45,170 bases of DNA from Chrysochromulina tobinii (taxonomy: Eukaryota): the NCBI GenBank assembly GCA_001275005.1, contig JWZX01003301.1:1-45170 (forward strand), written 5' to 3'. The notes below the pieces were generated by a model. That model was not told the origin of the DNA and searched no databases. It saw only the letters and a list, made by a program, of their open reading frames with translations. This document shows, piece by piece, positions 2,383-38,975 of this stretch (positions within the stretch are counted from its first letter, which is position 1; the number at the start of each line of letters is the position of its first letter). The translations under genes and the position numbers were made by a program.

Positions 2383-3053
2383 TGCCTGGTGCTCTCGCGC
2401 GCGTGACACAGCCGCCACTAAACACTCTACAGCAAGGACGCGCATTCAAACACGCTGTTGGCGAGTCTCATCGTGCATGTGTGCCCACAGAGAGTGGAGT
2501 AGTGAGACATTTTGGTCCGCCACCGGTACAGGTACTGTAACCATCCGCCCGCGGAGCTCGCCGTGCGACAGGCGATCAGGCCACGCGAGGATGGTCCACC
2601 GTTTTCCGCTTGCCGGAGAGCGAGAAAAGTGGCCGGCCAACTAAATGCCAACTTTATGCCAATAGGCCATTTATCGAATGCGTGTGCCATAGCCCCCGCG
2701 GCCGACCAATGGTCGGGTCGCCACTGCCAACCGCAAAAAAGCCATAGCCCGCGGCCATCTGATCTAACCGCTCGTTTCCAGCGCCCAGCGGCCGTCTACT
2801 CTCGACCTCGCTATAGTCCTCTGTACCCTGGTACAGTCAACAGTGAGCCCGGGGCCGGGCGTTCAGGGTTCAGCTAAGGATACCGCGCGTCACTGACCGC
2901 GCGTGCACACACACCCACACCCTTGCACACTGCACCGTACAGTGCAGGGTGGTACCGACACTACTTCTCGAGCTGCAGACACAGCCAAGTCGCTCTGAAA
3001 TATACACCTTTTTACAGGAGGTCGAGGTGTATTCGGTACGGCATGTCATAGTA

Positions 3054-3590
3054 CTATGTAGAGACTTCGGCTCCAGAGAGAGTATTATTAGCTCCGCGCG
3101 GCTCCGGAATGCGGCTCCGGAATATGGAGCTGAGCGCGGATAGGAGTTCATCAAGGCACGACAAGGGAGAACTTGTCGGCTCAGATGATAAGCTGTGCCA
3201 CATAGCGGTGCGCATTGCATCGCTGCTCAGCATGCGACCGGCCTTGTTTGAGTCCGCCATGCTGGAGGTGGGTGACCTGCAATGGTTCGGCGCATGCGGT
3301 CAGAGCCGCATGAACAAGGCGATGAGCTTTGGAGCTTATGCGCGGGGAATAACTCACCTGTGGCACAGGTGCTCACGACTATCGTGGCACTGGTTTGAGT
3401 TCATGAGCAGCACGTGCCGTGCAAGGATCTGACTTTGCTCGGGCTTCATGATGAGCGTAAGCATCAACATTAGATCACTCGACTTCATGGTGATCACTGT
3501 TCCATATGAAAGGCCAATCGAGTGCATGCGGCCCGCATAGTCTTGTGGCATCTTGAGCGAGTCGCAGAGCTCTTCCAATTCGCGGTGCAT
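3054..3590 (-). CDS. Hypothetical two-exon protein (~150 aa), exons 3590-3358 and 3276-3054
   Basis: An 81-nt intron 3357-3277 (CAG|GTGAGT...TTGCAG|G) joins the ORF MHRELEELCDSLK...HLCHR in frame to SPTSSMADSNK.... No recognisable domain. Confidence 0.45.
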
Positions 3591-7954: not shown

Positions 7955-9411
7955 TCAGGGCATGTTGTTGAGCTTCTTGAAGTGCGCCATAGCCTCTGGC
8001 TCGGAGTTGAGCTTCTTCCAAGCCGCGACCTGCTTGAAAATGTGCGCGAGCACGTGACGCGCCGTGCGGTTCTCCGGCCGGAGCACCTGGCTCACGCCGA
8101 GCAGGTCGCCCGCCTCCTTGATGAAGTACTCGAGGTCGTCATCATTGCACTTGTTGGTGAGGTGCGCGAGACGCACCTTTTCGGACGCGAACTGATCGTC
8201 GAGGTCGAACAAGTCGAGGGCAGGAGGCGGGGGCTCGCGCAACGAGGGCGGGAAGACGGCGGGTTGAAGCGGCGGTAGAGGGTGCTCAAACTGCGGCGGG
8301 ATGAGCGAGAGGGGCTCGTGCTTGACGTCGAGGGTCTCGTAGAGCTTCACAGCCTCCGGGATGAGAGAGGTGTCGAATTTGAACAGCGAGTCGTCGAAGA
8401 GCGTCGTGAAGTCCTTCGTGACCTCCTCTGTCTCCTCGAGACAGCAGCGCACCTGTGGGGAGGGGCAGAACGCCGTGGTGAGCACTTGCATGCCGTGAAC
8501 TCGACCTCCTCGAGACAGCAGCGTACCCGTTCCGCGAGGGCCTCTGAGTCAGGCAGCTGGTGGTACTCGGCCACGTCGGGGTCATCGGCGTCGATCGAGT
8601 CCATCGTGACGCCGCCGTCGTGTGTGAGCCAGCGCAAGAGCACATTCACCAGCTTCCCGTTCTCCTCCTTATCCACCCAGTCGTCCTGCAGCACGTATGA
8701 CGAGCCGAGCACACAAAGGCGGCCGCCACCCAGAGCGCCCGAGACGGCGCCCGAGCGCGCCCTCTCGCCACTCCAGAGCGCGCAGACAGGCCGGTTGAGC
8801 GGGAAGGCGAGCGGCCCCGAGGAGAGCACGGGGAAGGCGGGCTTCTGCACCGCCAGCGAGCAGCCGTACGGGTACACGAACGACAAGTTGGCCTGAGGCG
8901 ACGACTCAGAGATTGCTGGCGGCACCAGCGCACCTGTCGCGGCGGACGCCGCGCGCGGCCGCCTGCCAGAAGCGACGTTGATCTCACGGTTGAGGACGCC
9001 GTTGGCAATGTGCACCTCCTTCGGGTGCAGGTACTTGTAGTACACCGTGCGCACCACCGCGTCCTGGTTGAAGGCTATGCCGTATTCCTCGCAAAAGTAG
9101 TTGACATTGGTCGCAAACTTGCTCTCACCCTCCTCGCCGAGCGTGATGAAGATGGAGCCGCCCTCCTTCATGTACTCGTTCATCGCCTCAAACTCCGCCG
9201 CCGAGAACTTCTCGCGCGGCCCCACAATAGCAAAGACCGACGCCTCGCGCAGCACTGCAAGAGTAATCGCATCCTTGTTGACGGCGATTGTGAACTGGCT
9301 ACCCAGCTTCCGTCGGAGCCCCTTGAGCCCCTGGTTGGGGGTGAACAGCTCGCGCTTTGACACGTCGAACAGGATCGTCTTCTCCTGACGGCCCACAATG
9401 GGGGCAGCCAT
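7955..9411 (-). CDS. IFT52: Intraflagellar transport protein 52; exons 9411-8527 and 8452-7955
   Basis: ILFDVSKRELF, GPREKFSAAEF, DAVVRTVYYKYLHPKE, FVYPYGCSL, PLSLIPPQFEHPLPPLQPAVFPP, LDLFDLDDQFASEKVRLAHLTNKC. A 74-nt GT-AG intron at 8526-8453 joins the two frames. Confidence 0.95.
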
Positions 9412-9599
9412 CGCGCGTGCGTGCCGCGCGGCGCGCAAGCCGTTGGTCCTCTGTGCACCGCGACTGGCAGCTCGCGCGCCGAATTGAGCGGAATTTCCTT
9501 CGGCTGGGCTGGGGGTCTCGCACGATCGTGATCTTCCTGCCAAGACATGGTGTCCGGTTTTCACAGCTTCACCTATTTTACGTTGCCGCCCCCGCACTA

Positions 9600-12446
9600 A
9601 TGGAAGGTCACGACCGGCGAGGCGAACCCCGGAGTCTGTCCGCCGCCTCGTTCACCAGTCTCGGCAGGCAGTTCGCTGCCCACTCCGCGGCTTGTGGTGC
9701 GCTCACATGGGCCTGGATCGACGCGGCGCGCATCGATGGCGGGCCCTTTGGTTCGCCACCAACTGGCTACCTGCGCGCGAGCCCGCTCCTGCTACAGACA
9801 CCTGAGCGCGGCCACGACGCCTTCATGGCGGCAGCGCTGGACGATGCTGATGCCGATCCGAGCTTGGCGGCGCCGATTCTCAGCCAGGCGCCGCGGCTCC
9901 TCCTCCATATCGTGCACAGCACTACCTACAATGTGCCCGTGCTGCTCCTGCAAGGCTACCACGCGGAGGGCTCGCTATGGTCGCCTGACGAGCTGCGCGC
10001 GCACCTCACCGCCATCCCTGGGGTGTCGCCGCCGCTGACCCCTTCGATGATCACACAGATGGAGCACCCCGCGCTCCGAACGCCCTTCTGCTGCGTCGAC
10101 CCTTGCCGAACGGCTACGCTGATGGGGCATGTGCTGCCGCCCGAGGGCACCGCCGAGGGCGACGGTACGCCCACCCTCGACTACCTGAGCGCGTGGTGGT
10201 CGGTCCTCGCGCCGCTCGTCGGCGCTCGCAGCCGGGCGGCGTGGTACAGCAACGAGCCGCTGGCACCACGGCCAGTGCGCCTACTGTCCGCCAGTGTGAA
10301 TGTTGTTGATGGCCTTGATGCTGCTGCTGCTCCCGCTGCTGGTACTGGTGCGCCCGTTGCTGCTAGTGATGGTGGACCTCCGCTGCCGCCACCGCCAGCC
10401 GCACTCGCACCAGCACCCACTACAGCGCCCTCGACGGACGACGAGCCCACTACAGCGCCTCCTCCCGCCCCTCTGCGCGAGGGCCAGCTGGTGCGGCTGG
10501 TCGGTCTCCGCTCGGCACAACGCTCGGCCGCGCACAACGGTCAACACGCGGTCGGGTGTGAGCCCGATTTGGAGGTGAATCCGCAGGATCTCGTGCCAAT
10601 CTCGCATAATCTCGCGTCAATCTCGCATAATCTCGAACCAATCTCGCATAATCTCGAACCAATCTCGCATGATCTCGATCAGCTCGATCCGAGTGAAGGG
10701 GTATCGCTCTTAGAGCTGCCCTCAGAGCTGCTGCATCGGACTCTCATCGAGGCTGCTGGTATGGGAGGCACGCCCGCGGCCTTCCGACCACTGTCGCGTC
10801 TCGCGCAGACTTGCCGCGCGGCGCGTGCGGCGGTCACTGAGCTGTGGCCATCGCTCACGCTCTCGCTGCTGCCGCGCGGCACTCTCGCGCTCCCCCGACG
10901 GTTGGGCGCGCTGGCAGGCGCGGCGCCAGCAGAGGAGGCTGAGGTGAGCGCCGACGCGAGGGCGGAATGGCGTCACGCGAGTGCAGCCACCATCTTGCAA
11001 CCGGATCGATCCTCAGCGGCGCTAGCGTGCCGCGCGGCGGCGGCGATCGTGCCACTGATGCGTGGTGGGGGCGCTTGCGCGCCGTGCTGGCAGCTCGCGA
11101 ACTGGACGCTCCCAGTGGCCCTGTACGGCCACACTTCCGTCGTCTGGCGTGGCCAGCTCATTGTCTTTGGTGGGCGTACCGCGGGCGGTGTGCACACGAA
11201 TGCCGTCCACGTCGCCGAGCTCACCAAGTCGCCGCCGGTGTGGTCGCAGCCAACGACGGCAGGCGTGCTACCGCGCCCGCGCCGGTTGCACACGGCCACC
11301 CTCGATCCGCATTCGGGCCAGCTGCATGTACTCGGTGGATCGCTGTCCTCACGCACGACCCCAGAGGCCGCCTGCGGGGACGCGCACGCACTCTGCCTCG
11401 CGGGCTGGTCGTGGAACGCACAGCCGGCGCCGCCGCCGCGCGCGCCATCAGAGGAGGCGTACGGACGGCTCATAGGGCGTGAACTCCCCGGCGTGCCCCC
11501 GCCGCGAGACTGGGCTTTTTTCGCGCACTCGTGTACCTACCTGGACCCTGAGCTGCTGATGGCGGCAACGGGCAGCACGGCCAGCACGGCCAGTCCGGAG
11601 GCCACTGCAACCTCCAGCGCCCCCGGGTTACCCTGCACGCGCATGCTGTGCCCAAAAGGATGCCTGCTTGTGTTTGGTGGCCTGCGCATGAGCATGGGCG
11701 TACCGGCGAGGATGTCGGCCGCGGACGAGGCACAGGTGGTCCAAACGGGCGGCCTCGTGCTCCCTATTGAGAGTCACGAGCTCCAGCGCTATTGCCTGAG
11801 CACAAGGGAGTGGGCCGGCGTGCAGACTGCTGGCAAGAAGCCCACCGCCGCCTTCCGCCACTCCGCCACGCTCGTGCCTCAGCGCTCGCAGCTCGTCCTC
11901 TGGGGCGGCTTCGCATGGCACTCGCTCGAAAGAGAGCCGTGGACCGACGATCTGCCGTGCAACACGCTGAGCGTACTCGGACTTGGGCCACACAGCGCCT
12001 TCATGACGTGGAGCCAGCCCGAGGTCGAGCAGCGAGCGTGTTGGGCTCTTCCGCGTGGTAGCCACTCGGCCACACTGCTCGGCGACCAAATTTTTGTCTT
12101 TGGAGGCGTGTCGGTTCCAGAAGACCGCCTTGTCGACGGGGCGGTCTTTGAGTGTGACCTGGACGACGCCTTTGTCATCGACACCACTACGTGGGAATTG
12201 CACACAACTGCAACTCTCGGGTGCAATGCGCCGGCGGTGCGCTCGGCGCACAGCGCACACGTCGTGCCTAGCCGGTACGTGGATGGCAACGTGATGGGCG
12301 ATGGTGACGGCGCAGCTCCGGCCCTCGCCCTACTTGTCATCGGCGGGCGAGAGTTCATTGCGGCGGCGGATCCCGAAGATGATGAGCACCACCCACGGGA
12401 CAGCGTACACGCGTTGATGCTGTGGCCTCAGCAGCCGACGCCTTGA
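9600..12446 (+). CDS. ATG10-like E2 domain fused to an F-box-like segment and Kelch repeats; probable in-frame intron 10575-10682
   Basis: N-terminal HIVHSTTYNVPVLLL...ITQMEHPALRTPFCCVDPCRTATLM...YLSAWWS (ATG10/Autophagy_act_C-like). LLELPSELL is F-box-like. Kelch-like blades include GHTSVVWRGQLIVFGG, PRPRRLHTAT, PRGSHSATLLGDQIFVFGG and RSAHSAH. One uninterrupted ORF. Confidence 0.75.
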   Translation: MEGHDRRGEPRSLSAASFTSLGRQFAAHSAACGALTWAWIDAARIDGGPFGSPPTGYLRASPLLLQTPERGHDAFMAAALDDADADPSLAAPILSQAPRLLLHIVHSTTYNVPVLLLQGYHAEGSLWSPDELRAHLTAIPGVSPPLTPSMITQMEHPALRTPFCCVDPCRTATLMGHVLPPEGTAEGDGTPTLDYLSAWWSVLAPLVGARSRAAWYSNEPLAPRPVRLLSASVNVVDGLDAAAAPAAGTGAPVAASDGGPPLPPPPAALAPAPTTAPSTDDEPTTAPPPAPLREGQLVRLVGLRSAQRSAAHNGQHAVGCEPDLEVNPQDLVPISHNLASISHNLEPISHNLEPISHDLDQLDPSEGVSLLELPSELLHRTLIEAAGMGGTPAAFRPLSRLAQTCRAARAAVTELWPSLTLSLLPRGTLALPRRLGALAGAAPAEEAEVSADARAEWRHASAATILQPDRSSAALACRAAAAIVPLMRGGGACAPCWQLANWTLPVALYGHTSVVWRGQLIVFGGRTAGGVHTNAVHVAELTKSPPVWSQPTTAGVLPRPRRLHTATLDPHSGQLHVLGGSLSSRTTPEAACGDAHALCLAGWSWNAQPAPPPRAPSEEAYGRLIGRELPGVPPPRDWAFFAHSCTYLDPELLMAATGSTASTASPEATATSSAPGLPCTRMLCPKGCLLVFGGLRMSMGVPARMSAADEAQVVQTGGLVLPIESHELQRYCLSTREWAGVQTAGKKPTAAFRHSATLVPQRSQLVLWGGFAWHSLEREPWTDDLPCNTLSVLGLGPHSAFMTWSQPEVEQRACWALPRGSHSATLLGDQIFVFGGVSVPEDRLVDGAVFECDLDDAFVIDTTTWELHTTATLGCNAPAVRSAHSAHVVPSRYVDGNVMGDGDGAAPALALLVIGGREFIAAADPEDDEHHPRDSVHALMLWPQQPTP
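10575..10682 (+). repeat. Probable 108-nt intron made of a ~21-nt tandem repeat (CAATCTCGCATAATCTCGAAC-like, ~4 copies)
   Basis: GAG|GTGAAT...GATCAG boundaries. Read-through gives the repetitive peptide ISHNLEP, and composition differs from the flanking exons. Confidence 0.7.
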
Positions 12447-12911
12447 ACATCGTACTTTTGAGCACTAAGATTAACCGCATAGGGTGGGACTGGAGACCTG
12501 CGGTACACCAGGGCGGAGACCTGGGGATGTACCGCTCTGGGTAGACCGCAAATCAAGTAATCAACGTCAAATAGAACACAGATCACAGTCGGTGTCATCA
12601 TTTCAAGATTTCATGCCCCGACCACCGTACGTAGCCTGCGTTCAATAATATAACCAAGAACTAACCTTAAACACCTTCTATTGAGTTTGCCCCGCAGGCC
12701 CTGCAATTTAACGTGAACGTGAACGTCTGAGTTCCATTTTTGGACCGTGTGCCTCACAACACGCGACGCGGGCGCGCGACGCTACGCGCCTGCGTTGCGG
12801 CCGTGTGGAGTGCCGAGCAAGCCCATGCAGTGCGCGTGCCAATCCGCGTGGCTCGCTGCGGCTCACCCGTCCGCCGCGGCTACGAAACAGTTAGGTGATT
12901 ACCACATTGCC

Positions 12912-13940
12912 ATGGCTCCTAAGAATGACCATCTCAAGCAGGACGTGGCCAAACTGTCAGAATCAGGTGCCAGTTCGCACCGCAGCGACGCCCAGAGCCA
13001 TCGTCGCGACATTCCGAGCAAGGAGTTTATGCCATCACAGTTTAGGTCACCGCAGTCTATGCCACGCATGAGAAGCCCCATCACCGGCAGTAAAGCTGCT
13101 GCAAATCAGGGTGCCGCGGTCAGCAGGGCACGCTGCCCGTTGCCTGATCAAGACTTCACACAAGTGGAGTGGCGACGCTACCTGCGCCGCGTGTACGGCA
13201 CAGGTTACCTGAATCTATCTAAGGCCGACCTCAACGTTGTCAATCTCACTACGTTGGCTAACACCTCGGCTCTCATGCACCGATACGTTGATAAGCTTCA
13301 ACGAGTCTTTCCACGCAACTTTGGCTGGAGTGGCTGCTGGAACTGTGGTCAAGGGCCGTTTGTGACCACCATGAATGTGCACACCCCTTTGGAACTTGCT
13401 TGGCGGCTGCGAGTTCACCGCAAGGTGGTGGCGAGTGGAAATGGTGGGAACACGGCGCTAAGCAACCATTCGTGGGTGGAGGTGACGCACTGTGGTGGCT
13501 CCCATTTTGAGCAGAACGCGTCGTACTTTTACCATGCCCGTGGAAGCGGAATGTGGATCCATGTTGGATACACAATTGCCTTTGGCTACCATGATGAGGC
13601 CGTGCTGCATTTTCTCGGAAAGAATTGTTCGCGGGGTGTGAGAGAGAACAATGGCAGGCTTCAGTGCGATCGCGAGCTCAACCGGATGGCGGTCGTAGCA
13701 CGCCAGAAGGGGTACGAGAGCGTGCAGTTCCTGCGACACTGCGATGCTAAGTGCGACGAGTGCTTGCACGAAATTGCTGTGCTCTATGGTGGTAGTGGGC
13801 GCTCGGCGTGCCCGAATATCGAGATGCGGCGAGGCTCCAGAGCACAATTGCCGTGCACATGCGTGCCGCGTGGCACGAGTGTCGGCACAATCGTGAAGCC
13901 AAACCGTGGGCCGTGCGCCACGTGCGCTGAGTGGCTCTGA
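12912..13940 (+). CDS. Hypothetical Cys-rich protein
   Basis: ORF of ~340 aa with globular-looking motifs (WVEVTHCGG, YFYHARGSGMWIHVG, GYESVQF, HEI) and many Cys. GC is lower than in neighbouring genes. Start uncertain. Confidence 0.55.
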   Translation: MAPKNDHLKQDVAKLSESGASSHRSDAQSHRRDIPSKEFMPSQFRSPQSMPRMRSPITGSKAAANQGAAVSRARCPLPDQDFTQVEWRRYLRRVYGTGYLNLSKADLNVVNLTTLANTSALMHRYVDKLQRVFPRNFGWSGCWNCGQGPFVTTMNVHTPLELAWRLRVHRKVVASGNGGNTALSNHSWVEVTHCGGSHFEQNASYFYHARGSGMWIHVGYTIAFGYHDEAVLHFLGKNCSRGVRENNGRLQCDRELNRMAVVARQKGYESVQFLRHCDAKCDECLHEIAVLYGGSGRSACPNIEMRRGSRAQLPCTCVPRGTSVGTIVKPNRGPCATCAEWL

Positions 13941-14319
13941 CAGAGCTGCGGAGAGTGGTGGATAAATCGCTTTGGCCTTTAGCTTTACTACCACAGCTGG
14001 CTACATGTACACGCTAAATGTGAAACCGCCGCCCTGTAAGTTTGTGGCGTCGTCGTTTGTTCGCGTTTCTGTATAGAAGCGTAGTACTAGGTACTCGGTA
14101 CCCGATAATACGCGAGAGGAGAAACGCGAGGAGTGGCGACTGGGGCCGCGGATTATATTCCGGATGATTCAGCTCGGACGTCACACATAGGTCCACATCA
14201 TTCTGCACTTCGCTTACTATCACAACCTCACCTGATTTTGAAGATGAACTTCTGAGCGGTCGACTCTACGGTACAGCGTCTCACGCACGCACTTCGATTC
14301 ACAAGCCTCACGCACTTCA

Positions 14320-15351
14320 TCACAGCCTTCGAAACCATTGCATCAAGAACGGCCGGCTTCGGATGTCCAGGAACTCCTGGCCACATCTCGTTGCCTGGGC
14401 TGCCTGCGGCGTCGCCGCTGGATGCGTGGCACTCGGGTGGTGGCGGCAGCCGAAGGTGGTGCTCTCGCGAAGGTGTGCCCCGAAGGCGCCCTCGTCGCTC
14501 GAGAACTGCGCCTCGAGCGCAAACGCGCCGTCGCGGAGGAGCTCATGGGCAAGATCGCATCGGACGGGCGCGCTCACGTGCAGGAAGATGCCGCCAGTAG
14601 CCAGCAGCGCGCGCACACGCGCGCCCAGCAATCGCACATTCTCCGTGCGGTAGGCAAGGTCGGAGCCCAATACGATGTCCACAGGCTCTCCGACGATGTA
14701 GGGTTGATAGGGTTGCACTTGCGTCTTGGGCGTCGTCTTGGGCGTCGCGGGCCCCGCCGCCGCCGCCGCCGCCGCCGCCGCCCAGGACGACGCCCATGGG
14801 AGCCGGACTACCTCAACCGAACAGCCGGCTGCCGCGCACGCATCGGCGTTGGCGAGGACGTTGGCGCGCAGATTGGCCAGCGTCAGAGCGTTCAGATCGG
14901 TGAGGACCACGCGCCGAGAGCGCGCGTAGACGGCCGCGGCAAGCCCCGGAAGGCCACAGCCCGCGCCGAGCTCCACGACGCAAGCACCCTCAAGCACGGC
15001 GCGCACGCGCTCGTCGACTGCGATCCAGCGAGCGAGCACGAGAGCAGCGCCCCAGAGCTGGCAGCCAGTCTGGTCGAGCTCGATCGCATCGCGGGAGAGG
15101 GTGTTGAGCGGATCATGTGGACCCTCGCGGAGAACCAGCGCGGGCGCACCGCCATCGCCGTCGAGCAGCTGCAGCACATGCAAGTTCTCGTCCTCGTGCT
15201 TGTGCAAGCTTTCCTGCAAGCTGTCCTGCATCTCCGTGTTCGCGCGCAGATGCGTCGCGCCGCGCGCGGTGGGGTGCCACATGGGTAGCGAAAGGTGGGG
15301 AGAGGACGGCGGTGGCAGAAAGCACGGGAGGCAACGAGCGGCGGCGGCCAC
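14320..15351 (-). CDS. Seven-beta-strand protein lysine methyltransferase (METTL21/EEF1AKMT 'family 16'-like); 5' end unresolved
   Basis: DQTGCQLWGAALVLARWI, VVELGAGCGLPGL, VVLTD, LPW, DIVLGSDLAY. Confidence 0.8.
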   Translation of the reverse strand: MAAAARCLPCFLPPPSSPHLSLPMWHPTARGATHLRANTEMQDSLQESLHKHEDENLHVLQLLDGDGGAPALVLREGPHDPLNTLSRDAIELDQTGCQLWGAALVLARWIAVDERVRAVLEGACVVELGAGCGLPGLAAAVYARSRRVVLTDLNALTLANLRANVLANADACAAAGCSVEVVRLPWASSWAAAAAAAAAGPATPKTTPKTQVQPYQPYIVGEPVDIVLGSDLAYRTENVRLLGARVRALLATGGIFLHVSAPVRCDLAHELLRDGAFALEAQFSSDEGAFGAHLRESTTFGCRHHPSATHPAATPQAAQATRCGQEFLDIRSRPFLMQWFRRL

Positions 15352-15659
15352 CGGGCGCGATGGCCCACGACGGCAGGTCCATCACCAGCGCCTCCGTCGG
15401 GGGGGTGGGTGTGGAGCTGTCCCGTGGAGGGCTCATCATTGGCGCGACCGTGCCCTGGACCTGTGCCCTCGCTGCCATCTTGAACGCATTGCCGCCCGAG
15501 GGCGCCAAGAAAGGTGCATCTGCCTTTGAATCTGCCTTGGAGGCCACCGCCGCCCGCGCTGCCGGCTGCGCGCGCGGCGCGCGCGCCGCCGCCGCCGCCC
15601 GTTCGGAATCAGGGGAGCGATGTGAACGCGTCGCCCTCTCCGCCACCGCGCGCGCAGCG

Positions 15660-16597
15660 CTCTCACTCCTCACCACCTCGACGCTCGACGCCGCCTTGCA
15701 CACGTCAAGGAGCACCGAATTCAAGTGGGCAGGAAAGAGCTCATCCGCCGCTGTGAGCGTCGGCAGCATGCCGATGGTGCCGACAAAGAACTTCTCGAGG
15801 TGCGGCGCATGCATCGCTGCGCGCCCGCGCTTCACGCCCGCGGTCCTCTCACCCACATAGCAGAAGAAGATGTGCCGCGGACGCTCGTCCACGCGCAAGG
15901 GCAGCACGCCATAGTTGATGGCGTCCTCGAGGAGCGCGGCGCGCAGGCCGTCAAAGCCGTCGGAGCCGCGCGCGATCGGCACGATCTGGGTCTTCGAGCC
16001 CTCCGCGTACGTGCACACGCACCAGCCGCTCGCCAGCGCGCGCGTCTCCGCCCATGCCGCTGCAAGCTCCGGGTCACTCAGATCGAGGTCGGAGCGCGGC
16101 CGAACGTCGGCGAGCCGGCCGTTGGGCGCGGGCACGTGCGCCGCAAGCTGCCGCTCCACCGCCGTCGTGTCGACCGTCGACTCGCCGACCGCGAGCAGCT
16201 CGGCGGGCGGGGCCGATTTGATGAACTTGATGCTGCGAGAGTTGACGCAGTGGCGCTGGTCGCTCTCGGTGTGATGCTCGCCCGAGAAAAGATGGCCCAG
16301 GTGGCCGTCGCACTGCGCGCACACAATCTCCACGCGCTGATCGCCGTGTGAAAAGTCCGGCTGCACGCGCAGGGAGCCGACGTAGCAGCGATCAAAGGAT
16401 GGCCATCCGCAGCCGCTCTTGTACTTGGCTGCGGCCGAGAACAGCGGGTTCTTGCAGCCGCGGCAGACAAAGTAGCCCTCAGTGGGGTAAAGGTCGTTGT
16501 ACTCGCCCGATCGCGCGGGCTCGGTCGCCTTCTCGCGAAGCACCCGGTACTCATCGGGCGTGAGGGTGCGGCGCCAGTCGAAGGCCGCGGTCATCAT
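15660..16597 (-). CDS. msrB: Methionine-R-sulfoxide reductase (MsrB) fused to an ADF-H/coactosin-like domain; 3' end unresolved (frame stays open to 15113)
   Basis: LTPDEYRVLREKATE, CRGC and CAQC zinc ligands, GCGWPSF, HLGHLF, RHCVNS. Then DLSDPELAAAW...WCVCTY...GSDGFDGL...INYGVL...IFFCYVGERTAGVKRGRAAMH (ADF-H-like). Confidence 0.8.
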
Positions 16598-17011
16598 CTG
16601 GACCGATCTGTCCTTTGGCAAGACTGAGGGCAGCCACGAGCTGGCCGGCGGCCGGCCCTTTGCCTTCCATCAGGATAGTACCGGTAAAACGGTTTGAGGG
16701 CCTTCAAAAGTTTCGATGATTGTGTTGCCCATCAGGATGGATAGCGTTCACGTTAAATTGCCATCTCGGCAAGACGATTCGATGGATTGATGTTCAATGT
16801 ACTGTCTGAAAGGCGGGACCGGCAACCAATTTTTCAGATCTGAGTGACCCGGAACTCTCGACATACAGACTGGCCGCTATACAAAACAGCCCCCGGAAGC
16901 GGCGGAGCCGGAAACTGCGAGTCGCGCCCCGCGGTGTGGTTGATTGCGTGGCGGCGCGGGGAGGGACCGCGAAATAACCTGACAGACTGACTGGGTGTCA
17001 GTGTCACGAGC

Positions 17012-18067
17012 TCACGACCCTACCCCCTCGAGCTCGGTGCATGTCGTCAGAAGCTGGTGGGCCAGAGCGAGCGGCTGAGGCATAAGAAGCTCCCCGTCGA
17101 TGGCGGGAGGACGTGCCGCGGCGGCCCGGAGCGCCTCGCGCACCTCAGCGAGCTCAACCCAGCGCGCACTCTCAAGCTCGCTCGTGTCGATGATGAGCGC
17201 CTCCGTGTGGGCGATCGCGACGGCGCCGAGCATGAGCTGTGGGGACGGCCCATTGGGCCACGGCTGGCTCGAGTGATAGATGACATCGCCCACGATCACG
17301 CCGGACTCTTCGCGCACCTCGCGACGCACCCCTTCCTCTAGGGTCTCTCCCGGGTCGAGGAAACCGGCGAGGCAGCTGAACCGTCCCTTGGGCCACAAAG
17401 CTTGACGGCCAACGAGGCAGCGCGTCCCGTCGGCCGAGAGCACCGCGGAGATCACGACAGGGTCCGTCCGCGGGAAGTGCTGGGTGCCGCACGAAGGGCA
17501 CAGCCGCTTCCAGCCTCCCTTTTTCGGTTCCGACCTCGACCCGCACGCCCCGCAGAACGTGTGCGAGCGGTGCCAATGCAGCACGTTCCGCGCCTGCCCG
17601 ACCATAGCGGCCTCGGCAGAGCTCGCTCGCCCCACAATGTCGCGCAGGCCAACGAATCGGCTTACGCCATGCACGGCGCGGGCAACTCCGTCAGGGTCTT
17701 GGATTGATGCCGCAAAGCACATGGTGTCGCTCGCCGTTTTCGCATACCTCTCGTTGAGGAAGGAGGGTGGCATGGCGTGCGGCTTGCGCCGACCAAGAAG
17801 AATCATTTCGTCCACGCCAATCTCACGCGCCTGCGCTGCCGATGCGTATGCGAGACCCCCGGCGGAATTCACCGCCACTGCGTTCTTCTTCAGGTCGAGC
17901 AGTATCACTGCCGACGACTCGCGCTCTGCAGCGGCCAGCCACAGAGCGTCTTCCAGCTTTGAATCTAGAGGTCGCACCAGATGGGAACCCGCATAGCAAG
18001 GCTCTGGACGACGCTTGGTGCACGCAGCGATGACGGACGAGCGCAGTCGCTCGGCAGCCGACTTCAT
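17012..18067 (-). CDS. NADH pyrophosphatase, NudC/NUDT12/NUDT13 family Nudix hydrolase
   Basis: WHRSHTFCGACG...CPSCGTQHFPRTDPVVI zinc ribbon, Nudix box AGFLDPGETLEEGVRREVREESG, SQPWP signature. Confidence 0.92.
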   Translation of the reverse strand: MKSAAERLRSSVIAACTKRRPEPCYAGSHLVRPLDSKLEDALWLAAAERESSAVILLDLKKNAVAVNSAGGLAYASAAQAREIGVDEMILLGRRKPHAMPPSFLNERYAKTASDTMCFAASIQDPDGVARAVHGVSRFVGLRDIVGRASSAEAAMVGQARNVLHWHRSHTFCGACGSRSEPKKGGWKRLCPSCGTQHFPRTDPVVISAVLSADGTRCLVGRQALWPKGRFSCLAGFLDPGETLEEGVRREVREESGVIVGDVIYHSSQPWPNGPSPQLMLGAVAIAHTEALIIDTSELESARWVELAEVREALRAAAARPPAIDGELLMPQPLALAHQLLTTCTELEGVGS

Positions 18068-18313
18068 GTGCTCAGAGAGAGAGAGCGCGCCTTTGCTAGG
18101 GGTCCACGAGGGGCACACAAAAGCCTCCTAGGGGCGTTTTGATTGTCGCGTGAACACGAGTCAAGACAACACCGCCACCCGAGGATGACTGGGGCCCGTC
18201 GTGCGTGTATGTTCTTGGGGGCAGGACGTGGTGCAGGGCAGGGCTTCAAGACTTCATGCAAGAGAAGTTCACGTCCGTGGTCCGGGCGCTCGTCTGAAAG
18301 CCCGGCGTCATCC

Positions 18314-33313: not shown

Positions 33314-35700
33314 TTATGGCATCGTCTGGAACGTACGCAGCATCCCCTGGTCCACGAAGCTCGCAAACGGAGCCGTCGAGAGCGTTGCCATATCCGCGGC
33401 GCTCAGCTTGCAGGAGCGCACGCGGTGGCTGATGTCGAGCCGCGGCGTCATCTCCACGGCGAAGGCGACGAGGAACTCGCACGAGAGCCGTTGGACGGTA
33501 TCCGTCGTCCACGCCGCCTTAGCCGTCGCGGCGAGATACTGCTCGAATGCGAGCGTCGTCGCGAGCGCAGGCGCCGTCGTGAGTCCGATCTGCTGCAGAC
33601 TCTCGAGGAGTACGCTGTCCTCAAGGAGGGTCCACTCGCCGAGCAACGCGGGCAGCGCCGCGCGGTCGACGTACGCGAGGGTATCGAGCGCGCCGCCCAG
33701 CACACTCGGCTTGCCGATGAAGGCGACGCCGTACCCCGAGGGGTCTGCATCTGCGACCGGCACGCCGGGCGCGCTCGGGTTGAGAACGATGGCGTAGAGG
33801 TCGCGGCGCACTGCAGGAGAGAAGAGGGGCGTCTGCGCTGATCGCGCGGTCACAGCGGCCGCGTACGCGGGGTCATGGACGCTCCGGATCGTGACGCCCA
33901 GGACGACGCCCAGGCCGGGGCTGCTGTTTGCCGGCGCGATGCGCGCCGTCGCTGTCCTCGACGCCGGCGTCGGCTGCTCTACGGCCATGCTCGTCACGAC
34001 CGGCGCGGCGGGTGGCCTGTGCCACGGCCAAATGGGTGCGGGCGTCACGCCTGGTAGCTCACCCGCTGCCGCGCCGAGCCCGAGACGCGCCGTCGCGAGC
34101 GCGAGTACGGGCGCGAGGTGCGCCTTTAGATCAGCCGCGCTCGCCGCCGCCTCCTGCGCCGCCTCCGCCGACGCCGCACGGGCCAACACCCATGTGCCAA
34201 AGTCGGCGGCTGGGCCATCGGCCGCGCCGCCGAGACCGAGCACACGGATACCCTCGAGGAGTCTAAGGGTGAGCGGCACGATCGGCAGCTGCATAGCCGG
34301 CGAGTGGGCTGCGGGGGGTGGCGCGGGCGGCGCCGAGAGCGCACTCACACTCACACCAATCTTGGTGGCGGCGCAGCGCTCGCACAGATCATAACGACAC
34401 GACGCGCAGTGGAAGAAGAAGGGGGCGCTCCTCTCGAGGGAGGTGCGTTGGCACTGATCGCAAGAGGTCGACTGGTAGCCCGCTGGGGTGCTTCCGACCA
34501 TCTTGGCCATCGGGTGCGCGCGCAGGCAGGGCACAGCGGGTAGTGCTGCCGCCTGTGCGGAGCTGCCTAAAGTGGGGGCTGCCCCGCCGATGGCGGCGGC
34601 GCCGCCCGTGCCGAGGGCAGGCTGCGAGGCAGAGATGCTGTTGATGACCTCGAGCGGATTGGGAGTACTCCAAATCGGGGTCGCCAGCCGTCGGTCCTCG
34701 TGAGTCCGTCCAAAGGGGCTGCCGCGGCCAAAGGGACTGCCAAAGTTGACGGGAGGGCGAGCGGCGAGCGTTGCGATGGATTGAGCGTCGAGGGTCGAGC
34801 GCACACGTGCCACCAGAATGGTCAGTGCTTCCTCGAGAGAAGCGCGTGTCAGACGCACAAGTACCTTGGTCGCCTTGGCCAAAGGAGCGGCGCCGAAGGT
34901 AATGGGGCGCCAGGGTTGCGCCGGCGCCGGAGCGGCTTCATCGAGTGCGGCCACGCTCGCCGCATACACACCGCCAAGGCTCTCTCGCAGCCAACGGCTC
35001 ATGGTAGGAGGGCTCGTGAGGAGCTCAGCGGCATCGGCGTCGTCTTCATCCACCGGCGAGCCGAAGCGGCCAGTCGGCCGGTAACGGAAGCCATAGGGCG
35101 TCGGCACTGGTGCTGCCCACGGTGGGGGCGCTCCGACCGCCGGGGCAGCAGCGGGCGCACTGAAGAGGCGGCGGCCTGGTGCGGCCTGGTGCGGAGCGCT
35201 CGAGGCAGCGCTCGAGGCCGAAGCCAGGTGTGAAGCCAGGTGTGAAGCAAGGGGCGCAGCGCTGAAGGGCGTGCATGAGGGCGAGGGCGGCGCGTATCCA
35301 AGTATGGCAGGCGAGGCCGACGGAGCACCAAAGGGCGCAAAAGGCGCGCGCGGCCCTTGACCAGCAGCACCAAAGGGCACAGCACCGATGGGCGCAGCAC
35401 CAAAGGGCACAGGCGAGGGCGCAGGCGAGGCCGGGGGAGGTCGTCTCAAGGAGGCCTCGTGAGACTTGTAGAGCCGCTCGCCGACAGCAGGTGAGGTCTG
35501 GGGCGGCGCACCGAAGGCAGGCGACGCCGATGGCGAGGGCGGTGCAGCTCCGAAGGCCGCCGTTGAGCCAAGTGGCGCAGGACCGAAGGCGCAAGATGGG
35601 GCGAAACCCCCACGGGACGCACCGAGCGGATCACCACCGCCGAAGCCGCCACCACCCTTCAGACCGAATCGGCCTCTGCAGCTGCCACCTCCGTTGCTCG

Positions 35701-35735
<35 letters not shown>

Positions 35736-38566
35736 AGGGCCGCGCGCGCCTTGTGCGCTTCGTCAAACGTGAGACGGTACGCTGAGAAGGCCGCGCGGAG
35801 AGCCGAGGGCTTGGGGCGGCAGTCCTCGGGCACGGGCGCGTGATCCGACTCGAGCTTCGCGACCGCACACCCCTTCGTGACAGAGGGCGCCACCAGCTGA
35901 CCGAGGAGCGAGGTGCGCAACGTGACAAGCGTGCGCTTTGCCGCGCACACCTCCGGCATCGCCACAGTTCCCGCCAGATGGTAGGCGGGCTCAAGGAGGG
36001 GAAGGTGGCGCAACGCCTGCTGCGTCGGTTTCAAGGCGAGCTTGGCGCGCAGCGAGGCCACCGCGCGGTCCCCATCGCTCAGGACAGGGATGCCTCCAGG
36101 AGTGCCTCGAGCCTCGCCTCGAGAGTGCCCATCACGACGCGAAAGAGAAGGTGGGGCTGTCTCAACAAGTTCCCACTCGTCTGCCGGTTCCGGCGGACCC
36201 GACGATGTAGCTGCGCGCCTGCGCGCGGCGGCAGAGGCGAGGTCTTCCGGCCCCGTGGGGGCGACTGCGGCGGCGGCGGTGCCAGCGGCCGTGGCGTTGC
36301 GTGCCTTCTCTCCAAGAGGAAAGCTGTACGTCGTGCGCCCGTCCCCGAGGGTGAGGCTCACAGACGGCCTCGCGCCGCCCTTGGCCAGGCCTTTGATGAG
36401 CTTGTCTAGGCCGCTGACGTCGTTTGGGTTACGGGGAGTGGGTGGAGTGGCGACGGCGCCCAGCGCGCCGCTTGGGTGCAAGAGGATCATCTTGAGGCGC
36501 GTGCCCGGGAGCGCACGCACGGCAAAAGTAGAATCGCTCTCCATTACCCCGTGACTAGAGAGCCCTCCGAGGGCCGCAGGCTCGTGCGCCCACTCGGGCG
36601 GCGGGGCGGCGGCGTCACTCCCATTGCGCAGCGCGAGCAGCTGTGCTCCATGCACGCGCAGCGTGAGGCGTGAGGCGGCGCGCAGCACCGAGCGTGCGAG
36701 CAACCCAAGCACTTTGGTCTGGATCGCGCCCCCCTCGAGAGACTCGACCATGAGCGCCTCGCCGCCCGTCATGCGAGCCAGCCACGAGACGCAGCTCGGG
36801 TCGAGCCACGGCCCGTACCCCAGGCAGTCGACCTGGAAGAAGCCGACGCCCGGCTGCTTGCGGATAGCATCGATCTCGCCGAAGAAGCGCTCGCGTGACG
36901 TGGCGCCGCCGTCGGTGACGAGAATGACAGAGTGGAGCGACGCCGGATTCACCGCGACGCACGCCCGCAGCTCAGCCGACCACGAGTCGTAATTGGTACA
37001 GCCCCCTGGCCGGAGCGCGCGCAGCTGCGCCTGCAGCTGTTCAACGACGTTGCCGGGCTCGGTCCGATCCGCGGGCAGCATCACGTCGGCGAGGCCCGTT
37101 GTGCGATCGTCAAAGCTCCATAACCGCACGCGCACGGGCTGCATGTTGATCAGCTGTTGATCGCGCAGTGCGTTCAAGTGCACGGGCAGTGCGTTCAGTA
37201 TGGCCCTGAGCAGATGCTTTGAGGTGTCGAGCCGCGCCACGTGGCCGCCCAGGGAATCCGAGTGCACGCTCATCGCGGTAGAGCCCGAGGTATCGATGAT
37301 GACATAGAGCTCATGCGGCGCGGATGTGGGTGCTAGCCCTGGCAGCGGCGCGAGGGGCAAGGTCAGGTCCACGAGCGTCGACGCAAGCTTAGAGCCATCT
37401 TCAGGCGCGAAACACACTCCGTCGATTGTGTCGACGGCATGGACAGCCGAGCTTAGCGCGGCTTCCGCCGCCATGGCTGGGTCTTTCTGCGCCGGCGCGC
37501 CGATGGTGAGTTTGCGAAGCTCAGCGATCTGATCGATCTGCGGCTCGGACAGGCGTACGCGTACGAGCGTCCCTCGCGCGAGGCCGGTGGGCGACCTCCA
37601 CGAGAGTCGGCGCCACGAGTCGAGCGAGCCAGCGCTGAGCAGCGTTGGCCCAAGCTGCAAAAGCTCGCTCACGGCGGGTGAGACGTCGCGCAGCCCGCGC
37701 AGGTAGCGGAGCGTCGCGCGATCGGCCTCACGCCCGAGCTTGATGACATCCTCACGTAGCACCTCATCCTCGGGCACAACGACGGCGAGTCCGGGGCCCA
37801 CATGGACCTGGAGCTCGAAGGGCACACCGACCGCGTCGAGGGGGGTGAAGCCCGGCACGATAGACACGTCCGCGATGCGCTCGGATGGCGCCTCGCCGTT
37901 GGCACCCACGCGGTCGCGCCGCCTGAGTCCGGAACCCTGTAGGAAGCGGCAGCCAAAGATGACTGTCGCACCGTCAGGGATCTTGTCGAGCTTGATCTGA
38001 AAGGCATCCTCGGCCGTGTCCGAGAGGGTGGCGCTGTGTGTCGTCGAGGAGGCCGCGGCTTCGTAGCTTGCATCTGCCTGCTCCTTCTCCATCACCTCGG
38101 GATTGTACTGGATCTTGTCGCACACGTGCTCCTCCTCGAGCAGAAGCAGGTCAGGCAGTCGCGGCACGTCGAGGATGGCGGCCGCGGTGCCGCCCAACCG
38201 GTTGGTGACGGTGACCCTTAGGTCCCAGATGACGCCCGACTCGCGCGTGACGACGGCCGTGAGCGTGACGCGCTCAGGGAGCACGCACACATTCTGACGA
38301 GTTGTTGCGCCGAGTGTGACGCGCACAGCGGCGATGAAGCCATTCGATTCGTCGATGGGAATGTAATTATTTGCCTCGACATTGTCGCCAGGGCCCGCGT
38401 TGAGTCCGGGGGCCTTGGGGTCGGTCAGCGTGCGAGGCTCCAAGCCGGTGGCCTCGCACACGGAGACTTGAACACCGCAACAGCTGGCTGGCGCGGCAAA
38501 GGCCTGCGCGGAAGCGAAGGGGTTGGTAGCAGTTGCGGTAGAGCGTGGAACCGAGAGCTCGAGCAT
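33314..38566 (-). CDS. 1750-aa protein with a VIT-like region, vWA domain, PFGA-repeat low-complexity linker and ZZ-type zinc finger (VWA5-like)
   Basis: MIDAS LYVIIDTSGST, PGGCTNY, VILVTDGG, LARMTGG. N-terminal EVMEKEQADASYEAA (VIT-like). CDQC...FFFHCASCRYDLCERC (ZZ-like). Poly-Q tract. Confidence 0.75.
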
Positions 38567-38975
38567 GGTTCTGCGTTTGTGTGTCTCGTGACGCCGCGCG
38601 TGTAGACAGCAATAGCTCGCTTTCAGAGGTGTTTCAGAGGTGTTTCAAATGCACTCCAGTCCTACTCGTAAATTTCGCTAGAGAGGTCAGTCTCTCCCAG
38701 CACGCATGGTGATCTCTGGTGCTCGCTGCACTACACTGCCGGGCGGGATAGTGATAGGCAATCAGGTGGGGGTGGTCACAATGTTCAATGTTGTATAACT
38801 GAAACTGAACTGTACCTTCATAGAAGATAGAACTGAACTGAACAATGTTGTAGAGGCCTTTCTGATGAAGTTCGCATCTCGTCAGATCGCCTCATTGTCG
38901 GTACATGTACATGTTTCGATGTTGTGTGGTCATTGTGGATGAGGGGCCCATTCCGCAAATTACTGTCGGTGTTGA

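Follow-up and report, generated by a model that had tools for sequence, protein, structure and literature searches.

Gene structure and transcription at the locus

The window (the whole stretch of DNA analysed, 45,170 nucleotides of Chrysochromulina tobinii contig JWZX01003301.1) carries on its reverse strand a single-exon coding sequence of 758 amino acids (14320..16597), which encodes an MsrB domain, an ADF-H domain, an Ala/Pro-rich linker and a Methyltransf_16 domain when base 15353 is skipped. As assembled, the open reading frame extends over 16669..15113 (reverse strand), with its first Met at 16597, and the frame is lost at codon 416, where 15353 is a surplus base in a run of three. This base was absent in all eight sequencing runs (six RNA and two DNA; the DNA runs may represent the source strain, and two of the RNA runs come from one sample) and in the independent metagenome contig L001. 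Without it, 758 codons are open to the stop at 14320, absorbing a downstream Methyltransf_16 ORF. Base 15353 is a one-base assembly error that hides a third domain; the C. tobinii assembly is described as built with 454 data (PMC4580454). RNA editing or ribosomal frameshifting at this position was ruled out because the base is also missing from both DNA runs. The initial annotation had recognized the MsrB and ADF-H parts of the architecture, but its boundary near 15660 fell short of the true end at 14320, and the lysine-methyltransferase-family domain further along the chain was overlooked.

The three-domain protein is also present in public assemblies, in clusters P0128 (41 members, including fragments) and P0129 (21 members). 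Whole three-domain members have 755-787 residues (757-758 in P0128 and P0130, 784 in P0129), and P0130 is encoded exactly by contig L001. The NCBI gene model P0002, in which an intron of about 15852-15018 splices the MsrB domain and half of the ADF-H domain to the methyltransferase, was dismissed: RNA contigs of five runs cross its donor site or sit within the intron, no joint was seen, and the intron would delete the conserved long helix of the ADF-H domain. The public gene model is thereby corrected, and a three-domain protein is uncovered behind a one-base error.

RNA contigs, which do not themselves show the strand, cover this reverse-strand gene in pieces from 14153 to 16673. Their upstream ends lie at 16649-16673 in five runs and their downstream ends at 14153-14165 in three, and the flanks of this region are almost bare of RNA contigs. 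The junction between MsrB and ADF-H is bridged by a gapless polyA RNA contig (15919-16665), and that between ADF-H and the linker by a contig at 15305-15811. Splice joints were not seen in the six RNA runs. In three culture RNA runs, the contigs end at 15616-15633 and restart at 15485-15496, just before Met374; this could reflect a separate methyltransferase transcript with a second start. The gap (about 15490-15620) contains a patch of 96% GC, and comparable gaps occur within the methyltransferase coding region. No single RNA contig spans the whole gene, and contigs cannot prove one transcript.

Several neighbouring features were also noted. Upstream of the gene, 32 bases at 16745-16776 showed a summed depth of about 2900-3400, versus about 40, and matched many DNA contigs with similar flanks; this is a high-copy short genome repeat, present in L001 too. 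The upstream neighbour (17012-18127, reverse strand) is a NUDIX gene of the NADH-pyrophosphatase type, and a convergent 405-residue ORF downstream (12723-13940, forward strand) had no Pfam match and is still open in L001. A 1033-residue frame at 9345-12446 (forward strand), whose start overlaps an IFT52 ORF on the opposite strand, combines a weak N-acyltransferase match with Autophagy_act_C (Atg3/Atg10-type) and Kelch repeats, and is possibly an odd fusion. A frame of 1776 residues at 33314-38644 (reverse strand) gave weak VIT and C1/ZZ matches.

The MsrB and ADF-H domains

The MsrB (SelR) domain spans residues 12-126 (16220..16564, reverse strand). It matched the Pfam SelR profile with an E value of 1.8e-39 and 135 bits (cut-off 24.9), and also passed TIGR00357 (114 bits, cut-off 113.05). 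The canonical MsrB features listed in 10.1101/2021.02.26.433065 (RxCxN, CGWP, two CxxC and HLGH) were all found. The RxCxN motif corresponds to R115-H-C117-V-N119, with the catalytic Cys117, and its R, C and N are invariant in 20/20 aligned sequences. The resolving Cys63 (CGWP) and the first pair of Zn-site cysteines, C45 and C48, are invariant in the 18 rows that cover them, the second pair, C93 and C96, in 20/20, and the HLGH histidines are present and invariant in the MsrB alignment. The initial annotation, which had read an intact MsrB from the RHCVNS, GCGWPSF and two CxxC motifs and had proposed a SelR search, was correct in this respect. The domain is the same canonical 2-Cys Zn-binding domain, with every listed motif, as that of animal MsrB1-3/SelR (PF01641, TIGR00357), enzymes that reverse the MICAL oxidation of actin, and its chemistry is likely the same. 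In contrast to the animal enzymes, the algal protein has its own ADF-H domain, carries Cys instead of Sec, and has no known MICAL partner in its lineage. A linker of ~40 residues (16100..16219, reverse strand), with two predicted short helices and a low-confidence stretch, connects it to the next domain.

Profile, fold and alignment evidence places an ADF-H domain of the coactosin/drebrin type at residues about 167-308 (15674..16099, reverse strand). The Pfam Cofilin_ADF profile, a search that had also been suggested initially, gave a divided answer: the window protein matched at residues 190-273 with E 2.8e-4 and 21 bits, just below the cut-off of 22.4, but 13 of the 16 two-domain homologues scanned exceeded it. 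The only PDB sequence matches of the domain were drebrin, Entamoeba coactosin and HIP-55, and the use of a family profile lifted them to E values of 5e-9, 5e-5 and 1e-8, respectively; identity to any characterised ADF-H is low, about 20%. A model predicted from 20 homologues had a pLDDT of about 85-95 across most of the domain, although the relative orientation of MsrB and ADF-H in it carries no confidence (pTM 0.49). This model superimposed on the drebrin ADF-H with a Z score of 16.7 (rmsd 2.4 over 128 residues), on coactosin with 15.5 (Entamoeba coactosin being the second-best match) and on Abp1 with 15.4. The top 16 rows of the VIA structure search were all ADF-H proteins (Z 16.7-10.8), Foldseek agreed (drebrin, E 2.7e-8), and 29 of the 30 matches in the Atlas search were Cofilin_ADF clusters. 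Together with the RNA contig across the junction, the fold match to drebrin upholds the in-frame continuation into a coactosin/ADF-H-like domain that had been claimed. All seven SNPs within the domain are synonymous (P 7e-5).

The predicted F-actin site was examined by alignment. Arg239 and Arg241 (15875..15883, reverse strand), which align to R73/K75 of human coactosin-like protein, are both Arg in 20/20 fusions, and the R241 column is K or R in 112 of 115 other relatives. On the long helix, K or R occupies the position of R257 in 19/20 fusions and in 113/115 other relatives; position 255 is hydrophobic in 20/20 fusions. Positions 255 and 257 may correspond to R267/R269 of twinfilin, the basic pair on which severing ADF/cofilin proteins rely to bind G-actin tightly. 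The R73E/K75E double mutant of human COTL1 is reported not to bind F-actin, the site being placed by the mutagenesis primer (PMC11260685). As far as the alignment indicates, the coactosin-type F-actin-site residues are retained in this domain.

The algal domain shares with coactosin, coactosin-like protein and the drebrin/Abp1/HIP-55 ADF-H (PF00241) the fold (Z 15-17), a pair of the R73/K75 type and a basic long helix. It differs from them in lying C-terminal to an enzyme, rather than standing alone or N-terminal to a coiled coil or SH3. It is not coactosin proper, described as having a single ADF-H only (PMC5297645), since the algal chain is multi-domain; nor does it belong to the drebrin/Abp1 class, whose ADF-H is N-terminal and often followed by a C-terminal SH3, whereas the algal one is internal or C-terminal and no SH3 match was obtained. 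It represents a divergent subfamily, whose nearest relatives are stand-alone and tandem ADF-H proteins.

Conservation, origin and the methyltransferase domain

A search with the two-domain MsrB-ADF-H sequence revealed, among the best 120 of 1282 matches, 19 further clusters (P0003-P0021) with 75-99% query cover and 49-71% identity. Eighteen of these extend through the full ADF-H domain and end no more than a few residues later; P0019 diverges earlier. Among the listed members of the 20 clusters looked up, a complete 324-residue transcript ORF of Phaeocystis cordata carries the pair; with C. tobinii, this makes two or more genera of haptophytes. The remaining members are presumably haptophyte too, and we refer to a haptophyte family in that sense. 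When the ADF-H domain alone was searched against 1.84 billion representatives, 187 matches were obtained, and the seven with E < 1e-30 were fusion members or an apparent fragment. An MsrB domain was not found in any of the 143 further ADF-H representatives. These relatives are stand-alone or tandem, and among 45 scanned there was one with a villin headpiece (P0237) and one with a formin FH2 (P0298).

In a quick MsrB tree (two of 121 rows dropped), the fusions form one clade (SH-aLRT 84). They also form one clade (100/99) in an ADF-H tree built from the 20 fusions together with 45 relatives, the best among the 115 (of 143) that passed a length filter; two short MsrB-less ORFs are nested within it and look like fragments. 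These trees are consistent with a single origin, in which a whole stand-alone ADF-H gene may have been joined behind MsrB. An N-terminus of the form MG-x-x-x-S occurs in 7 of 18 fused homologues (six with Cys3), versus an MG start in 1 of 98 unfused MsrBs; such N-termini resemble myristoylation/palmitoylation signals. The C. tobinii protein lacks this N-terminus.

A search for longer forms yielded, between 785 and 2240 residues, six unrelated MsrB fusions; the range of 544-784 residues was searched separately. The literature searched (titles and abstract openings) contained no MsrB-ADF-H fusion, which agrees with the initial remark that the architecture was not recognizable among characterised proteins. 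The phrase 'methionine sulfoxide' is absent from the main text of the C. tobinii genome paper (PMC4580454). The GST-MsrA of Emiliania huxleyi likewise joins an Msr to a second domain in a haptophyte, and the accessible text of that paper does not mention cofilin (PMC7539508). In that protein and in bacterial MsrA/B fusions the partners are redox enzymes, whereas in C. tobinii the partner is a cytoskeletal targeting domain. All three domains belong to known families.

Other members of the same ADF-H subfamily were recorded in passing. Three to six tandem ADF-H domains (twinfilin has two) were found in P0210, P0212, P0213, P0216, P0218, P0220, P0223, P0235, P0236, P0328 and others, and the subfamily is also joined to a villin headpiece, formin FH2 or WW domain (L005:385-1647, P0237, P0298, P0222); L005 is in two parts split by a stop, probably an intron. 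The long-helix motif recurs in short, apparently stand-alone ADF-H proteins encoded on the low-GC contigs L003 and L004. Actin sequence was looked for in viral contigs, with 0 matches.

Behind the ADF-H domain, the Ala/Pro-rich linker and pre-methyltransferase segment (15121..15667, reverse strand) is in frame and shows SNPs and whole-codon indels between strains. Seven of its 11 SNPs are synonymous (P 0.013 against site counts), and seven whole-codon indels occur among 18 aligned proteins, a count biased by the choice of these sequences as long ORFs. The linker behaves as coding sequence. It is followed by a domain of the seven-beta-strand protein methyltransferase type (14320..15120, reverse strand; best match about 14788-15075), which matched Pfam Methyltransf_16 with 56.8 bits (cut-off 21) over profile positions 15-109 of 174, that is, the first half; the second half matches weakly and contains an Ala/Pro insert. 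The best PDB match was EEF2KMT (E 1.9e-9), METTL21 was also matched, the Atlas search placed the domain nearest to lysine-methyltransferase clusters (0.95), and SAM-binding and DxxY-type motifs are visible. Profile and motifs are thus common to the Methyltransf_16 family (EEF2KMT, METTL21A-D, calmodulin-lysine N-methyltransferase), from which the algal domain differs by being fused behind MsrB-ADF-H. A full-length predicted model (mean pLDDT 26) was set aside. Only two closely related clusters, about 95% identical, have the methyltransferase, and they branch from well within the two-domain family; this position suggests that the domain was likely added late, as a lineage-specific extension. 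DNA was available for one two-domain locus, L002, and showed no methyltransferase match within about 1.6 kb downstream.

Proposed function and alternative readings

In animals, MICAL oxidises actin methionines to the R-sulfoxide and MsrB1/SelR reverses this, and ADF-H domains bind actin. We infer that actin is a substrate here. With somewhat better than an even chance, in our judgement, the ADF-H domain tethers MsrB to actin filaments; the reductase would then act there on Met-R-sulfoxide of actin or of nearby cytoskeletal proteins. The protein likely repairs oxidised actin in place, because the pairing of MsrB and ADF-H is kept in about twenty related proteins. By analogy with the family, Cys117 would attack the sulfoxide, Cys63 would resolve the intermediate step and thioredoxin would recycle the enzyme. 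The ADF-H domain would bind the sides of filaments weakly and without severing, raising the local concentration of reductase where oxidised subunits leave the filament, and in the sub-clade with lipid-anchor-like N-termini the protein may be located at the cell cortex.

The oxidation of actin Met44/Met47 is reported to be reversed by MsrB enzymes, which are described as acting on G-actin, and how the animal reductase is aimed at actin is stated to be poorly known (PMC9982024). Domains of the coactosin/Abp1 type are reported to bind F-actin only, and weakly (PMC2447895), with Entamoeba coactosin as a reported exception that binds both F- and G-actin (PMC5297645). On this comparison, the main tension in the tethering proposal is that MsrB would act on G-actin, whereas its presumed anchor would bind F-actin only.

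A different reading, which we consider unlikely, accepts that the ADF-H domain binds actin but has the reductase mainly protecting Met262 of its own helix or other actin-binding proteins, as a self-repairing or redox-gated coactosin. Oxidation of cofilin Met115 is reported to abolish actin binding and to be reversed by Msr enzymes (PMC8534876), and Met262, located on the predicted long helix, is Met in 16/20 fusions; it is not fusion-specific, however, because 4/20 fusions have Leu or Val at this position, and among unfused relatives, too, Met is the residue found there most often (33/115). Ranked just after it in probability is the view that an enzyme drives a Met switch on actin and that the algal protein acts as its dedicated eraser; the counterpart would be an oxidase other than MICAL, or a burst of oxidant confined to sites of phagocytosis or scale secretion. 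A reductase with a regulatory rather than a housekeeping role would need a targeting domain; animal MsrB/SelR is described as broadly localised and without one (PMC9982024); haptophyte scale secretion is reported to need actin (PMC5684398), and membrane anchors are predicted in one fusion sub-clade. On the other side, no oxidase candidate was found among the 23 window ORFs scanned, and in a survey without haptophytes, MICAL is reported only from animals and from none of the three non-animal genomes that are named (PMC3305314). The initial proposal of a single-chain, actin-targeted repair or redox-switch enzyme therefore stands in part: the single chain with MsrB and ADF-H is expressed, kept in haptophytes and retains the basic F-actin-binding residues, but the redox-switch version is without a known oxidase.

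Doubtful too, and placed below the switch, is a non-actin partner for the ADF-H domain. The drebrin structure that matched best was solved in complex with ZMYND8, not actin, according to its PDB entry title, coactosin-like protein is reported to bind 5-lipoxygenase as well (PMC5297645), and the identity to any characterised ADF-H is low, about 20%; against this, the basic pair of the F-actin site does not vary, and other actin-binding domains occur as fusion partners among the relatives. We regard it as quite improbable, the least likely of these four readings, that a fusion between neighbouring genes was simply tolerated and each domain works on its own, since MsrB-ADF-H persists at identities as low as about 50% and with a near-constant linker length, gene neighbourhoods differ (L002 adjoins an XRN gene), and among the 143 further ADF-H representatives there is no unrelated MsrB fusion, the two MsrB-less ORFs of the clade being fragment-like. 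For the methyltransferase, present in two close clusters only and behind a 145-residue low-complexity linker, such a tolerated fusion is plausible, and the odds are about even that it is a passenger.

A broader scenario, unlikely in our estimate, is that haptophytes evolved their own actin Met redox switch independently of animals, with a filament-anchored and sometimes membrane-anchored reductase set against an oxidase yet to be found, and that the C. tobinii chain also writes a methyl mark through its methyltransferase. If the latter were true, one actin-docked protein would erase one modification and write another. Returning to the tethering proposal, the conservation of an MsrB fused to an actin-type binding domain in algae, far removed from animals, suggests that Met oxidation of actin matters beyond animals, and the soluble 310-residue MsrB-ADF-H part might find use as a reductase tool with built-in targeting to actin.
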